Source of the DNA: Candidatus Bathyarchaeia archaeon
Lineage (GTDB): Archaea > Thermoproteota > Bathyarchaeia > TCS64
Assembly (NCBI GenBank): GCA_050014495.1
Contig: JBEKDF010000048.1
Location: 1 to 17,777 of the forward strand
Length of the DNA: 17,777 bases
Reading direction: 5' to 3'
The translations under genes were made by a program, and so were the position numbers. The notes under the pieces are model-generated. The model saw nothing but the letters and a program-made list of their open reading frames with translations. It had not been told where the DNA came from and ran no database searches. Shown piece after piece: positions 1 to 9,534 of the stretch; within the stretch, counting starts at the first letter, position 1, and each line of letters opens with the position of its first letter.

Positions 1-102
1 GTTCATCTTGTCCTAAGTGAACTCACCTCCTAGGGTTAGGCAGACCATTGGGGGACGAGACCCCAACTATCAAAATAAGCTTATATTAGCCCTGATGAAT
101 TT

Positions 103-123
103 CGGGACAAGCCAGCGCGCGCA
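103..123 (-). repeat. Element-end-like motif: (RY)n tract + CTGGCTTGTCCCG
   Basis: Minus strand reads TGCGCGCG-CT-GGCTTGTCCCG. 12/13 identical to CTGCCTTGTCCCG at 7090-7102 and similar to the reverse complement of 7546-7558. Confidence 0.55.
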
Positions 124-4297: not shown

Positions 4298-4371
4298 GGG
4301 CCGGTCGTCCAGCATGGTAGGACGCCGCCCTTACGCGGCGGAAGTCGCCGGTTCAAGTCCGGCCCGGCCCA
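4298..4371 (+). tRNA. tRNA-Val(TAC), no intron, CCA not encoded
   Basis: Acceptor GGGCCGG/CCGGCCC+A; D stem GTCC/GGAC; anticodon stem CCGCC/GGCGG with loop CT-TAC-GC; T arm GCCGG-TTCAAGT-CCGGC. Confidence 0.97.
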
Positions 4372-4423
4372 TCATCATTACGGTTCAGAACCCTTATAAG
4401 GGCGATGGAACAAATTCTCGCTT

Positions 4424-5705
4424 ATGAAGGGACGCCTCTACGCCCCGCTACTCGAAGACCCAAAAATTAAGCGCTGGCACCAAAACTTAGCCCGTGGATC
4501 ACAAGTAACAGCCGACGTCTACCTCAGAAGACTAGGAAACTTCTGCGAGTCAACCAAAACCACACCACAACAACTCGCAGCAATGAACGAAGAAGAACTC
4601 TACAACCTACTACTAGACACAGTCACCAGCATGGAGAAGAACTACACCGGCAGCTACACACAATCCATAATAAAAGCCATCAAATCATGGCTAAAACACA
4701 ACGGAATCCAAGTCACGAAAGAGATCAAAATCAGGGGAGCCGAAGACGCCCCCACCCTCAAAGACGAGAAAGTACCCACACAGACTGAGCTCAAGAAAAT
4801 ATTCTTATCAACTGACTTGAAGGGTCGGACCGCTTCAGTCCTTGTAGCCCACAGTGGATTGAGACTTGAGACAGTTGGCAACTATTTGGGAGATGACGGG
4901 CTTAGGATCAGGGATCTACCTGAGCTCAAGGTTGAGGGCGAATCTATTGAGTTTGAGCAGATACCCACACTAGTAATCGTCAGAAAGGAAATCAGTAAAG
5001 CCGGCCACCAATACTTCTCATTCCTGTCTGAGGAGGGGTGCGGATACCTCAAAGACTACCTCGAAGCCAGAATGAGAGACGACGAAAAACTCGGAGCAGA
5101 TTCCCCGATTGTGACTCCTAAACAGAGGATGAAACCATTCATCAGATCCACCAACGTCGGCGACGTGATCAGAGACGGTATCCGTAAGGCTGGTTTCCCG
5201 TGGAGGCCCTACGTGCTCCGGTCATACTTTGACACTGAGATGATGCTCGCTGAGTCTAAGGGGCTTGTGCTTCGTGACTATCGTCAGTTCTGGATGGGTC
5301 ACAAGGGTGACATTGAGCATCGCTATACCTTGAATAAGGGTAGGTTGCCTGGTGAGGTTGTGGAGGATCTTCGTGGAGCGTATCGTCGGAGTCAGGAGTA
5401 TCTTGAGACGGGTAGATCTGAGTCTGATAGTGAGGAAAGGCTGAGGGATTCCTTCAGGAAGCAGCTTCTACTGGTAGCTGGGTTTACGTCTGAGGAGGTG
5501 GATGGGATGGATCTGTCTATGGATGATGCCTCCTTCCAGGAGATGGTTAGGAGGAGGCTTGGGGGTCAGTCTGGGGATGGGGGCGGTTCTCAGAGAGTTG
5601 TATCTGTTGGGGACGTGGATGGGTTCCTCTCCCGCGCGCGCGCGTCTGCCGGGGGATAGGATCATTCTGAGGGGACCTGGAGAGTTTTCGCCGTCAAAGA
5701 GTTAG
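4424..5705 (+). CDS. Tyrosine recombinase/integrase next to tRNA-Val; extreme C-terminus frameshifted at a (CG)n tract
   Basis: HSGLR, YVLRSYF, WMGH and RY catalytic motifs; TTATAA about 25-30 nt upstream. The main frame stops at 5659, but the likely true tail LPGDRIILRGP...* continues in another frame to 5705. Confidence 0.85.
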
Positions 5706-5786
5706 TGGTTATCTGTTTGCTGAGAACCAACAGGGCTATTTTTCACATGTATTTATCGAATATTCCTTTCGCGCATGCGCGCTTCT

Positions 5787-5806
5787 ATGAGAACGTTTTC
5801 AGGAGA
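5787..5806 (+). repeat. IS110 sub-terminal inverted repeat (downstream end)
   Basis: ATGAGAACGTTTTCAGGAGA versus the reverse complement of 7064-7084, ATGAGAAACGTTTTCAGGAGA (one indel). Confidence 0.85.
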
Positions 5807-5830
5807 CCCGATGTCCGGGCGGCGTCCCAG

Positions 5831-6907
5831 TTAGTTCCGCAGGCCATCTAACGCTTTCTTACCCATGTTCTTAAGTTTTCTCTCCGTCAACCCCCTATTC
5901 TCGCCCCTGTAAGGCTCCTCCCTCACCAGCATGAAGTACATTATCCTCGCCATCTCATGGGCCACAGCCACCACTGCGCACCCAGCGCCCCTCCGCCGCG
6001 AAACCCGCTCATACATCCCTCCGAGCCTAGAATCATGCCGGACAGCAGTCTGAGCCGACTCCACCAACGCCCACCTCAACCTCTTATTACACGGACCCGA
6101 GACCCCACCGATCTTGGTCCGCTCCCCGGACTGGTGGACGCTTGGCACAAGCCCCATCCACGACGCGAACTCCTTGTCGCCGCGGAACCGGCCGACGTCG
6201 CCGACCTCCGACACAACGAGCATCGCGGTGAAGTACCCGACGCCCGTCATAGTCATCAACAGCCGCACACGCCGGTCCTCCGCCGCGAGTACCGCGATCT
6301 TCTCCTCAATAAGCGTAACCTGGGCGTCCACCGCCTCCAGGACCGCCAGGTCGCTTCTGAGTATGGCGTCGTCCATGAAGCCGAGGCTCAGCCCTCTCAG
6401 CCACTCGATGTTGTCCCTGCTGAAGGGCGTCGCTCCGGGCATGCGGAGCCCATGTTTGTCGAGGAGACCGTGGACCCGGTTCTTCACCTCTGTCCTGTTC
6501 TTCACCAGGTTCAGGCGGTGGCGGAGGAGTTCCCGGCGGCTCCTCAGCTCCTCTCCCGGCACGTAGCAGGTGAAGAGCATGTCGGCTCGGAGTAGCCCGG
6601 CTAGGGTTCTGGCGTCGACCTTGTCGGTCTTAACCTTCGCCTCCGCAATCAGCCTCGTCTTGGATGGGTTTGATAGGGCTACGTCGACTCCGCGTTCCTC
6701 GAGCCTGTCATGGATCGGGATCCACAGGTTCCCAGTGGACTCGACAACGGCCTTCACCTCGTCGTGGAGGGTTGTTAGCTTCACCGCGAACTCCTCGATT
6801 CCATCGGTGTCATTCGGGAAGCGCAGTTCATCAAGTAGGGTTCCATCCTCATCTAGGATGGCGGCTTGACACATCTTTTTATGGACGTCTATTCCCACGT
6901 ACTTCAC
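5831..6907 (-). CDS. IS110-family DEDD recombinase/transposase
   Basis: YVGIDVHK, VVESTG and KTDKVDA (DEDD), and GLVPSVHQSG (catalytic Ser). Likely start GTG 6907 after the RBS GAGGTGA; the ORF track uses 6916. Confidence 0.95.
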   Translation of the reverse strand: MKYVGIDVHKKMCQAAILDEDGTLLDELRFPNDTDGIEEFAVKLTTLHDEVKAVVESTGNLWIPIHDRLEERGVDVALSNPSKTRLIAEAKVKTDKVDARTLAGLLRADMLFTCYVPGEELRSRRELLRHRLNLVKNRTEVKNRVHGLLDKHGLRMPGATPFSRDNIEWLRGLSLGFMDDAILRSDLAVLEAVDAQVTLIEEKIAVLAAEDRRVRLLMTMTGVGYFTAMLVVSEVGDVGRFRGDKEFASWMGLVPSVHQSGERTKIGGVSGPCNKRLRWALVESAQTAVRHDSRLGGMYERVSRRRGAGCAVVAVAHEMARIMYFMLVREEPYRGENRGLTERKLKNMGKKALDGLRN

Positions 6908-7055
6908 GGGTGTCACCTCGGGTGGCCTGCGGGCGGCACGCTCCTATCGGGTCTCTCCACGGACCAGTCGGGTAGCCGCTCGGATCTGGCCCAGTCTGCC
7001 TTAAGGGTCTCACGTGGACCAAGCGCGCGGCGGGCCTAGGCCACCCGCGACACCC
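6908..7055 (-). ncRNA. Bridge/seek RNA of the IS110 element
   Basis: Outer stem 7038-7055/6908-6928 encloses two arms (6988-7036, 6930-6982). Each arm has a large internal loop capped by a GGUC..GACC hairpin. Loop strands match the insertion flanks and the element ends. Confidence 0.85.
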
Positions 7056-7063
7056 TCGGAGTC

Positions 7064-7084
7064 TCTCCTGAAAACGTTTCTCAT
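7064..7084 (-). repeat. IS110 sub-terminal inverted repeat (upstream end)
   Basis: Partner of 5787-5806, located 5 bp inside the CT core at 7090-7091. Confidence 0.85.
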
Positions 7085-7089
7085 ACCGT

Positions 7090-7558
7090 CTGCCTTGTCC
7101 CGTTATTGGTGTAAAATGGTTTTAAATACTCTTTATCCAAACAAGTCATCGAATGGACCCCATCGACGACCAGATCATCAACACCCTTAGAAACGGCAAA
7201 CTCATGAGTTTCGAAGATCTCCTCAATAAGCTGGGTGTTTCACACAACACACTCAGACTCCACCTCGACGCGATGGCCGAGAAAGGAGAGATCAAGAAGG
7301 AAAAACGACCCTCGAAGGGGCGTGGGAGGCCTAGCTATGCCTACTCCGCGGATTCGGTAACCGTAAGGCGGTCTGCTGCTCGCCTTAACCGGGTATCGGG
7401 TGTGGTTTCTCTGAGTTTTGAGAGGCTGAGTCAGGTCTGCAGGTTCGAGAAGGGCGGCTACTGTAAGAGGTTAAGAGGTAGGTGTTACGCCTCGGATTGC
7501 CCCCAAATTCGGTGAGGGGGATTATAACCATTTAAAACCATTTTAGGGAACAGGGCAG
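7090..7558. mobile_element. Putative non-autonomous inverted-repeat-bounded cassette carrying one HTH gene
   Basis: Perfect 16-bp inverted repeat TAAAATGGTTTTAAAT (7112-7127) / ATTTAAAACCATTTTA (7530-7545), plus an outer imperfect inverted repeat CTGCCTTGTCCCG (7090-7102) / GGGAACAGGGCAG (7546-7558). Confidence 0.55.
7153..7515 (+). CDS. Winged-HTH transcriptional regulator with a C-terminal four-Cys motif
   Basis: LGVSHNTLRLHLDAM...GRGRPSYAY HTH and wing; tail C-x7-C-x6-C-x4-C. TATA TTTTAAATA about 25-30 nt upstream. Confidence 0.85.
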   Translation: MDPIDDQIINTLRNGKLMSFEDLLNKLGVSHNTLRLHLDAMAEKGEIKKEKRPSKGRGRPSYAYSADSVTVRRSAARLNRVSGVVSLSFERLSQVCRFEKGGYCKRLRGRCYASDCPQIR

Positions 7559-8264
7559 TGCGCACTTGGAAAACACATGAAGCAGATCTCGGAATACCAT
7601 TTCCTCTTGTTCCGCCTTCGATATGAACAAGTCTAACGGGAGCCTCCTTTTTCAAATCCAATAAAAATATACCAAGTAGTTTGTTAGCGTTAGCTCGAGG
7701 TAGATGAATATCTACACCCGAATGACCACCGAGTAGACCAGAAATATCCAGTCTAAATTCAAGCCAATCTATGGTAGACTCGTAGGAATAAGGTATTTTA
7801 TATTGGGTTCCACTACCTCTAGCTGAGCCAATTATTATTACACCTGCTTCTTCACTATCTAAATTAATCATGTACTTCCCGGTGAAGAAACCAGCCTTCA
7901 TACTAAGTGCGCCTTTTAGACCAGTTTCCTCCTCAACCGTCATTAAGGCTTCAATTTTACCATATTTTGTTAATTTTTGATCACAAAGTAAACCCATCGA
8001 AACTGCTAAGCCAATTCCGTTGTCTGCGACCAGACTTGTACCATCGGACTTTACTATATTTCCTTCGACTCTTACAGGTATTGGGTCCTTATCGAAGTTG
8101 TGCGCGTACGCGCGCTTTCTTGAAGCTAATGTTATTTACACTAGCCCAATTTTCCAACCAATTCTGAAGATCTTTTTCTTTACCTGAACAACGTGGAATC
8201 TTGGAGATTTTTTTTTAAATATTGACCAAGCTAATTCTGGTTCGAGCCCATCGAGTGTTGACAT
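7558..8264 (-). pseudogene. pepD: Aminoacyl-histidine dipeptidase (M20C) pseudogene
   Basis: N-terminus from ATG 8264 (MSTLDGLEPELAWSIF../ISKIPRCSGKEK) with an A9 frameshift. Internal deletion at 8099-8115. Then HNFDKDPI, ADNGIG, TVEEETG, NLDSEE, GGHSGVDI and RANANK. 3' truncated at about 7560. Confidence 0.88.
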
Positions 8265-8394
8265 TATTTTTCACTGCCTCTATAATCTTTTATAAAATAT
8301 TTACAATTTTCTATAGTAACAAAATTTATTCCAAATTAGATTCTAAACTTTCATAATAAAATTTTTTTACTAAATGCATACCTATTTATTTGGT

Positions 8395-9534
8395 ATGTCT
8401 GAAAAGAAATTAAATGATAGAGATCTTGACGACTTCCTCTCCGGCGCTTTAATTCTCGGAACAGGAGGAGGTGGAGGAATCGATTGGGGAAAAAACATGC
8501 TCAATTGGATAAAAGAACATGATAAAATTATTTCAATTATTGATCCTCAAAAAATACCTCAGGATGCTCTTATTGTGGGGGCTGCAGGGGTAGGAGGAGG
8601 AATTACTAAAGAAGAGAGAGAGAAGATTGAGAAAAAATTCGGACCACTCCCAGGGACGAGTGCATACCTTACCACCTCCATTATGGCTGATAAAATGATG
8701 GTTGGACACTTCGGGGAAGATATATCTGCCTATCTAGCCTTTGAACTAGGTTGTGGCAACACAGTTCTGCCCGCTTGTATCGCCGCTATGAATAACAAGC
8801 CACTTGTAGATGGAGACTGTAATGGAAGAGCTGTCCCAGAAATAGAATTATGCACCCTGAACGTTTGTGGGTTTCCATTTACACCAATTGCGATAGTCAC
8901 TCCATATTCAGAAACGATGCTAGTCACACATGTATATGACTATAGCAGAGCTGAGGACATCTGCAGAGCAATGGCCGTTGTCTCAGGAGGAGGATGTATG
9001 ACGATGGGTTCTCCCATAAGGGGAAAGGACCTATCAAAATCAATCGTGAAAAATAGTGTCTCGGGATCAATCAAGTTGGGTCAGTCAATAAGAGAGTCAA
9101 ATGATAAGGGAAAAGACCCTGTAGAAGCCGCTGTGAAAGCATTAGGTGGTAATCTTCTATTTAGAGGAAAAATAAAGCAATTCCAAAGAGAAGAGAGGGG
9201 AGGATTTATGTGGGGAGAACACAACTACGAGGGTACAGGAGATTTTTCAAACCATAAATTTAGGGTTGTGTATAAAAATGAGAACCTCTTATCATGGCTC
9301 GATGGTTTGCCTTATGTGACTTGCCCTGATCTAATTTGTGTCTTAGATGCTAAAGATGGAAAAGGGCTATCGAACTGGGGAAATGACTTTATTACTGGTA
9401 GAGAAGTTGCTGTAATAGGATACAAGATAGATCCCATTTGGCGCACAAAGAGAGGACTTGAGATATTTAGTCCAGCTCACTTTGGATATGATATAAAATA
9501 TAGACCAATCGAGAATGTCGTAACTAAGCCTTAA
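8395..9534 (+). CDS. DUF917 family protein
   Basis: GALILGTGGGG, ELGCGN, DGDCNGRAVPE and YKNENL...VTCPDLI motifs. Start 8395 or 8374. Confidence 0.9.
   Translation: MSEKKLNDRDLDDFLSGALILGTGGGGGIDWGKNMLNWIKEHDKIISIIDPQKIPQDALIVGAAGVGGGITKEEREKIEKKFGPLPGTSAYLTTSIMADKMMVGHFGEDISAYLAFELGCGNTVLPACIAAMNNKPLVDGDCNGRAVPEIELCTLNVCGFPFTPIAIVTPYSETMLVTHVYDYSRAEDICRAMAVVSGGGCMTMGSPIRGKDLSKSIVKNSVSGSIKLGQSIRESNDKGKDPVEAAVKALGGNLLFRGKIKQFQREERGGFMWGEHNYEGTGDFSNHKFRVVYKNENLLSWLDGLPYVTCPDLICVLDAKDGKGLSNWGNDFITGREVAVIGYKIDPIWRTKRGLEIFSPAHFGYDIKYRPIENVVTKP

Follow-up and report, generated by a model that had tools for sequence, protein, structure and literature searches.

What places an insertion sequence exactly at the end of another transposon? 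The window analysed here, a stretch of 17,777 nucleotides that forms contig C48 of a 3.1-Mb genome (G000), contains an intact IS110-family element flanked by a CG run and by the terminal repeat of a second mobile element, which we call the host, and a preliminary description proposed that the IS110 is aimed at junctions of an RY tract with an element end. We consider it very probable that the IS110 is matched, through its predicted bridge RNA, to the boundary of an IS5/IS1182-like element, composed of CG run, CT core and the opening bases of the terminal repeat, and that this RNA likely guides insertion there. The element ends, the repeated core, the occupied sites, the single orientation and the covariation between guides and flanks are directly supported. 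Named genome records with close relatives of the IS110 transposase belong to Candidatus Bathyarchaeia, and the sequencing runs that match the window are mostly peat metagenomes, with no RNA run among those listed. The insertion comprises the following features.

5770-5781, no strand: CG/RY run lying outside the host element, with GCGCG, its inner 5-6 nt, forming the outer target half.
5782-5783, plus strand: core dinucleotide CT, outer copy, placed from empty sibling ends.
5784-5830, minus strand: IS110 right end, 47 nt, with a sub-terminal inverted repeat at 5787-5805.
5831-6916, minus strand: IS110 transposase of the DEDD type, 361 aa, identified by PF01548 and PF02371, by NF033542 and by its catalytic residues.
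7065-7089, minus strand: IS110 left end, a 20-nt sub-terminal inverted repeat (7065-7084) plus a 5-nt extension.
7090-7091, plus strand: core dinucleotide CT, inner copy; as drawn here, the conserved part of the host repeat opens with these two bases.
7090-7558, plus strand: host, a 469-bp non-autonomous derivative of an IS5/IS1182-like element with inverted repeats at both ends and a 120-aa winged-helix gene at 7153-7515.

The body of the IS110 (5784-7089) lies between two copies of CT. Unoccupied ends in the same genome (C3, C5 and C67) read GCGCG-CT-GCCTTGTCCCG, also written GCGCG-CT-GCCTTGTCCCGTTATTGG, with the right side identical to the window from 7090 onwards, and they thus identify the core as the CT at 5782-5783, repeated at 7090-7091. 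Only this short core is doubled across the two junctions, with no longer duplication, and the empty siblings have a single CT. The left core had previously been put at 5785-5786, which is 3 nt off: the window copy reads CT-TCTATG and the other four copies with the same end read CT-CCTATG, a single changed base, so the extra TT-CT belongs to the IS end. The transposase matches PF01548 (E 1.5e-30), PF02371 (E 4.3e-22) and NF033542 (259 bits, cut-off 140), and the catalytic residues D10, E59, D98, D101 and S263 (GLVPSVHQSG) are all there. It has the GL-P----SG motif, and its 361 aa compare with the 330-350 typical of the IS1111 group. The sub-terminal repeats, of 20 and 19 nt, differ by one indel and are followed by extensions of 7 nt on the left (core included) and 3 nt on the right. 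Non-coding DNA amounts to 173 nt upstream of the transposase gene versus 47 nt downstream. Three further IS110 copies in the genome have a right end only (C9, C20 and C79), each adjoined by a CG run. Neither a circle junction nor an empty allele of the window copy was present in four DNA runs compared over 4300-8400 as contigs, which drop rare forms.

The host was identified from the larger elements that share its ends. These are 1.26-1.30 kb long and encode a 330-aa transposase with DUF772 and DDE_Tnp_1 domains, which scores 94.9 bits against the IS1182 profile (cut-off 270) and 93.6 bits against IS5_4 (cut-off 140); since both scores fall under the curated cut-offs, we call the host IS5/IS1182-like only. 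An assignment to the IS6 family, guessed from the GGC..TGT end, was dropped in view of these domains and profile scores. Two types of host end occur, type A with CTG(G/C)CTTGTCCC and type B with CTAGG.TGTTTAGAA, and the type B transposase is 34% identical to that of type A. A pattern census of the genome, counting only ends with an RY flank or next to an IS110 end, yielded 73 host-type ends, and IS110 occupies two of them (C48 and C17). The window holds two further stretches that bear on the host.

1-122, minus strand: left end of an autonomous-type host element with a CG run, an unoccupied target.
7559-7565, no strand: RY run beyond the far host end, where an M20 peptidase gene is broken.

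Two empty look-alikes of the occupied site had been pointed out, at 7546-7565 and 103-123. Both are present; that at 7546-7565 is not independent, being the far end of the same 469-bp element. Of 36 genomes of the family, 23 contain a match to the host transposase, as do 2 of 24 genomes outside it. The flanks of complete hosts are mostly unrelated, and reading frames gave no duplication length; for the complete host on C43, no empty allele was found in four other DNA runs. At C61, the left host flank resembles the beginning of a DUF262-type motif and the right flank an HNH-type tail, with the middle missing. Similar non-autonomous winged-helix elements of ~470 bp, with a cysteine-rich tail and type A or type B repeats, include the window copy at 7090-7558, G000 C79 7079-7544, L058, L084, L091 and L103.

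The long non-coding region upstream of the transposase gene contains a predicted guide RNA. We aligned and folded 44 of the 62 upstream regions in which all fields were readable, and the consensus places an outer stem around two hairpins with one internal loop apiece.

6920-7046, minus strand: predicted bridge/seek RNA from the consensus fold of 44 sequences, with an outer stem, a target-binding loop (6988-7036) and a donor-binding loop (6933-6979).
7022-7029, minus strand: target guide 1, CGCGCGCU, matching the CG run and core.
6996-7002, minus strand: target guide 2, AAGGCAG, matching the core and the first 5 nt of the host repeat.
6966-6974, minus strand: donor guide 1, a partial match to the IS left end.
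6941-6947, minus strand: donor guide 2, AUAGGAG, matching the right end and core in 54 of 56 elements.

Both target guides fall on the two unpaired sides of one internal loop in this consensus, so the earlier proposal that the target loop encodes both strings held at these coordinates. Guide 1 complements the gene-sense strand and guide 2 repeats it. Within the CG run, guide 1 spans the inner 5-6 nt, a near-constant stretch at host ends, and leaves the variable outer part uncovered. The idea that a variable CG scar serves as half of the target was therefore right in that the CG run is the outer half and wrong in that the part read is the fixed inner 5-6 nt. The stems are mostly invariant, with a double change in 5 of 29 pairs and a covariation term of -0.44 kcal/mol; the single-sequence fold is modest (z -1.8), and Rfam gave no match for the predicted RNA at E up to 1. 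The modelled RNA structure is thus plausible, with weak covariation support. The 54 donor guide 2 matches include 8 elements with a changed right end, and the window copy is one of the two exceptions. Base 5784 is T in the window copy and C in 46 relatives with the same donor guide; it mismatches the element's own donor guide, and by this mismatch the window copy may be less mobile. In L013/L122, L052 and L071, part of the RNA loop has been lost by a deletion between repeated GAGACC/GGTCC words, and L013 is still at a type B end. By eye, an AT-rich, TATA-like stretch lies within the host end at 7100-7135, ~30 nt from the core and on the strand reading into the RNA; it could be a source of read-through transcription into it.

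If the guides direct insertion, related elements should show it in their flanks. We collected 113 loci, comprising 80 kept of 240 metagenome matches, all 24 genome-collection loci and 9 of 30 further loci, the other 21 of which were repeats of genome-collection loci, distant relatives or fragments and were dropped. Merging duplicates left 90 distinct insertions, although insertion counts overstate independence because many contigs and loci come from related samples. The first guide could be read in 68 insertions and is of the CG type in 49. Altogether, 45 of these 49 CG-guide insertions adjoin a host terminal repeat (30 of type A and 15 of type B), as the preliminary description had proposed. 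An outer flank could be read in 40 of the 49, and it begins YRYR in 39; the exception is L133, which has no CG run. Repeat and CG run occur together in 36 of these 40 two-flank insertions. The remaining 4 of 49 are neither type by pattern: L046 has an A repeat with a 4-nt duplication, and L039, L071 and L093 have no recognisable host end. The orientation is single, with the left (RNA) end of the IS always at the host repeat. Copies carrying the same guide as the window element bear this out, since each of the 4 distinct insertions is flanked by a CG run and, opposite it, by a host-type repeat, one of these repeats being degenerate. Of the 49 insertions, 14 are at a transposase-bearing host (9 at its 5′ end and 5 at its 3′ end), 11 are at a helix-gene derivative and 24 are unassignable. 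In L044 a host has an IS110 at both ends, and in L080 an IS110 lies between two host ends that share a single CG run.

The guides also vary together with the flanks. Scored at five non-core positions over 25 distinct guide pairs, guide 2 matches its own flank at 4.2 of 5 positions versus 1.68 after shuffling and guide 1 at 4.16 of 5 versus 2.40; none of 20,000 shuffles reached the match of either guide, which, given the relatedness of the loci, is not a true probability. Relatives that are 61-64% identical have other guides with correspondingly other flanks. Within the CG clade, elements whose guides end in CAG are found at 26 A sites, 2 B sites and 2 others, and those whose guides end in TAG at 12 B sites, 4 A sites and 1 other. 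The two guide types are interleaved on the transposase tree (FastTree, 50 proteins), so the switch between them was not a single event. In L086 both guides have changed and the element sits at the second CT of a type B repeat, 5 nt deeper (L086 1-24, 1330-1345). L077 and L079, nested within the CG clade, are no longer at a host at all. The correspondence is imperfect: the guide ending of the other family occurs in 6 of 44 A or B insertions, and positions 4 and 5 of guide 2 match in only 28 of 48 and 31 of 48. Loose pairing, or mobilisation in trans by the complex of a sister element, would explain the mismatched guides; for IS621, action in trans is likewise left open (PMC13626964).

CG runs are a general property of this genome, occurring ~18-24 times above the first-order expectation (CGCGCGCG has 367 occurrences versus 21 expected and GCGCGCGC 512 versus 22). 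A run of 10 nt occurs in 23 of 36 genomes of the family and in 1 of 24 other genomes. Where alignments of IS copies end internally, 23 of 75 ends have a run versus a background of 0-4%; this set counts some ends repeatedly over four queries and takes in others caused by divergence. Within the window, (CG)n runs lie at 5633-5644, 8099-8114, 143-150, 1261-1274 and 1896-1911, and such runs often exceed the parent sequence. Several are at gene breaks, namely in the integrase tail at 5633-5644 and at both ends of the M20 peptidase fragment. A tyrosine-recombinase-like gene at 4424-5659, which scores under the cut-off of NF040815, has paralogues on C71 and C8. On C92 there is a paralogue of the 48 nt that precede the CG run (5724-5771), and it continues without a run.

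This abundance, together with the association with gene breaks and the three insertions that lie off host ends, could mean that the target is simply a CG repair scar followed by CT, host ends being struck merely through sharing such scars. That explanation is very improbable and largely refuted. There are 418 GCGCGCT sites in this genome and just 52 of them (12%) are at a host repeat, versus 45 of 49 insertions with a CG-type guide, and the pattern therefore needs more than a CG run followed by CT. Longer target strings are far more confined (GCGCGCTGCCTT is at host ends in 10 of 12 occurrences and GCGCGCTGGCTT in 16 of 16), guide 2 tracks the host repeat variant, and L086 has shifted deeper into the repeat. 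It is conceivable that the order of events was reversed, with hosts inserting beside resident IS110 ends, or that one ancestral composite was copied. Host ends do occur inside IS110 genes (L139 and L142), so the host does land on IS110 DNA. The host, however, needs CGCG beside its end, yet the occupied junction reads ACCGT-CT, and the other end of the IS has the CG run and a second CT core, as site-specific insertion predicts. Occupied hosts moreover span many subfamilies, both ends and both types, with differing outer flanks. The geometry in which run and repeat are split apart, seen in the 36 of 40 two-flank insertions, refutes reversed order or common inheritance, to which we attach almost no credence.

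The alternative that deserves most weight concerns the host boundary itself. If CGCG were the real tip of a host that makes no target duplication, the IS110 would land 2-4 nt inside the repeat, clip it and likely immobilise the host; it would then be a plain analogue of IS4321/IS5075 with the last one or two guide bases reaching the flank. At free type A ends (n=102, of which about seven rows look like chance hits), CGCG is near-fixed, and positions -4 to -1 are nearly invariant. The CGCG in the L142 flank extends past the parent sequence, and homology ends short of the run at L139, C14 and C30. The host insertion at L057 has an empty form (L014, L092, L036 and C63) that already carries GCGCGCG; by sequence comparison this allele can be read as a 4-bp duplication of CGCG, the repeat then starting at CT, or as the absence of a duplication, CG then being part of the element. 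IS1272 of the IS1182 family is reported to make no duplication (PMC5678879), and movement of IS5/IS1182 elements at deletion joints without duplication has been described in a preprint (bioRxiv 2024.06.02.596822). On the other side, conservation fades outwards from there as a target preference does (G at -5 in 89, C at -6 in 68 and G at -7 in 61 of the free type A ends), and -1 varies between copies that are identical inside (C29 vs C13 and C58). CG runs are also plentiful away from elements, with 48 of the 645 runs of at least 7 nt touching an element end. Among 45 ends in 13 groups identical at +13 to +40, we counted 1 deviation at -4 to -1, 4 at -5 and 15 at -6. Positions -5 and -6, which the guide also spells, vary among ends identical inside and are thus flank, so even a clipped repeat would leave the guide reaching variable positions. 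As judged from their constancy, -4 to -1 may nonetheless belong to the host, being as invariant as the repeat. A clipped repeat is in our view possible but doubtful, and a host repeat that starts at CT is the probable arrangement. With that start, insertion alters the flank alone and the host end remains whole; otherwise the end is clipped. Occupied ends have G at -5 in 36 of 40 and C at -6 in 25 of 40, and are no richer in CG than the free host ends, giving no sign that guide 1 selects among host ends or that the variable part of the run is read.

Insertion at a boundary that the RNA reads across could proceed as follows, by analogy with the work on IS621, ISEc21 and ISEc11. The IS110 would excise as a circle, and the recombinase would bind the RNA, with the donor loop holding the circle junction and the target loop holding GCGCG-CT-G(G/C)CTT or GCGCG-CT-AGG. 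Pairing guided by the RNA on both strands and exchange at CT would then leave the IS between run and repeat with its RNA end facing the host. Because the full 12-mer is found almost only where a host end meets a CG run, the host would in effect make the landing sites, and the IS110 would follow it to places that are already disrupted, where landing would cost the cell little. The suggestion that the IS110 parasitises the ends of another element would hold in the sense of dependence on the host to make sites, and the element may use those ends as a safe harbour. We are evenly divided on a broader reading, in which the boundary-spanning guide reads a joint that no single molecule encodes beforehand and that is made when the second transposon lands in a (CG)n scar. 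Such a guide would sense an occupied site and leave the host repeat whole, its inner guide having been repeatedly re-tuned to two host families, and the system would have three tiers, the scar, the DDE element and the RNA-guided follower.

The element is an IS110-family member working like a bridge recombinase, with IS1111-like ends and guide order and an IS110-like RNA position. IS4321 and IS5075, reportedly the subject of work by Partridge and Hall in 2003, insert well inside a 38-bp repeat. Interruption of the repeat in that manner is seen here for L086, and for the other insertions it hinges on CGCG being the host's. These two members of the IS1111 group share with the window element the sub-terminal repeats, insertion at the terminal repeat of another mobile element and a single orientation, but they use a Tn21-type transposon (PMC8269217) where the window element and its relatives use archaeal DDE elements of IS5/IS1182-like type or derivatives of these. 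For IS5075, targeting of Tn21 repeats has been termed a 'safe harbor' (PMC8269217). Unlike either of them, the window element has a guide that extends past the host into the flank. The IS1111 group is defined by sub-terminal repeats of at least 11-13 bp, 7+3 bp extensions and a top-strand complement that precedes the bottom-strand match (PMC11187229). Its seekRNA elements ISEc11, ISKpn4 and ISPa11 share with the window element the long sub-terminal repeats, the 7+3 extensions, GL-P----SG and the guide order (PMC11187229). In that group, however, the long non-coding region is downstream of the gene; here it is upstream, and we therefore do not file the element in the group, although ISMtsp17 (upstream) and ISHvo10 (both sides) are described as exceptions to the RNA position (PMC11187229).

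The bridge recombinases IS621 and ISCro4 are alike in having an upstream two-loop RNA, a CT core and donor and target loops built alike (PMC11208160; PDB 8wt6, 9t56), with a left guide identical to one strand and a right guide complementary to it (PMC11208160). Their proteins are distant from the window transposase (E 5e-14 and 1e-11). Unlike both, the window element has its CT strand opposite the gene-sense strand, so that the guides come in the reverse order with respect to the gene, and its sub-terminal repeat is 19-20 nt long. ISEc21 likewise has an upstream RNA and targets another IS family, at IS3 transposase codons, and a relative of it is naturally reprogrammed; its target is inside the gene of the host and its guide order is of the IS110 type, and the window element differs in both (PMC11187229). 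The nearest named protein that we found is that of ISHvo9 (39.6% identity), and the best plasmid matches are 37-44% identical. ISHvo9 and haloarchaeal IS110 elements have long non-coding DNA on both sides, as in the window element. Titles and abstract openings yielded nothing on this Bathyarchaeia lineage or on a guide that spans an element boundary; ISFinder, subscription journals and supplements may hold such cases. A 2026 preprint clusters bridge RNAs at scale.

The mechanism and the safe-harbour idea are already known, and targeting the repeat of another element has a precedent in IS4321/IS5075. The targeting described here is well supported, and landing on already disrupted DNA is likely. 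What the archaeal elements provide is a natural series of 90 distinct insertions, 25 distinct guide pairs having both flanks, that shows a bridge RNA tracking a moving target: the series spans two families of host repeat, a register shift of 5 nt and cases of escape to unrelated sites. These natural variants make mismatch tolerance and mobilisation in trans testable. The recombinases on offer to genome engineering are also extended by an archaeal one whose ends are IS1111-like and whose RNA lies upstream. Should the host repeat truly stay whole, the hitch-hiking is cleaner than that of IS4321/IS5075. A second IS110-family lineage, ~37-43% identical, is present as well (G000 C33 274-759, C63, L018, L019 and L036), with its long non-coding region seemingly downstream, and this downstream region contains the GCGCGCG that serves as the host insertion site in L057.
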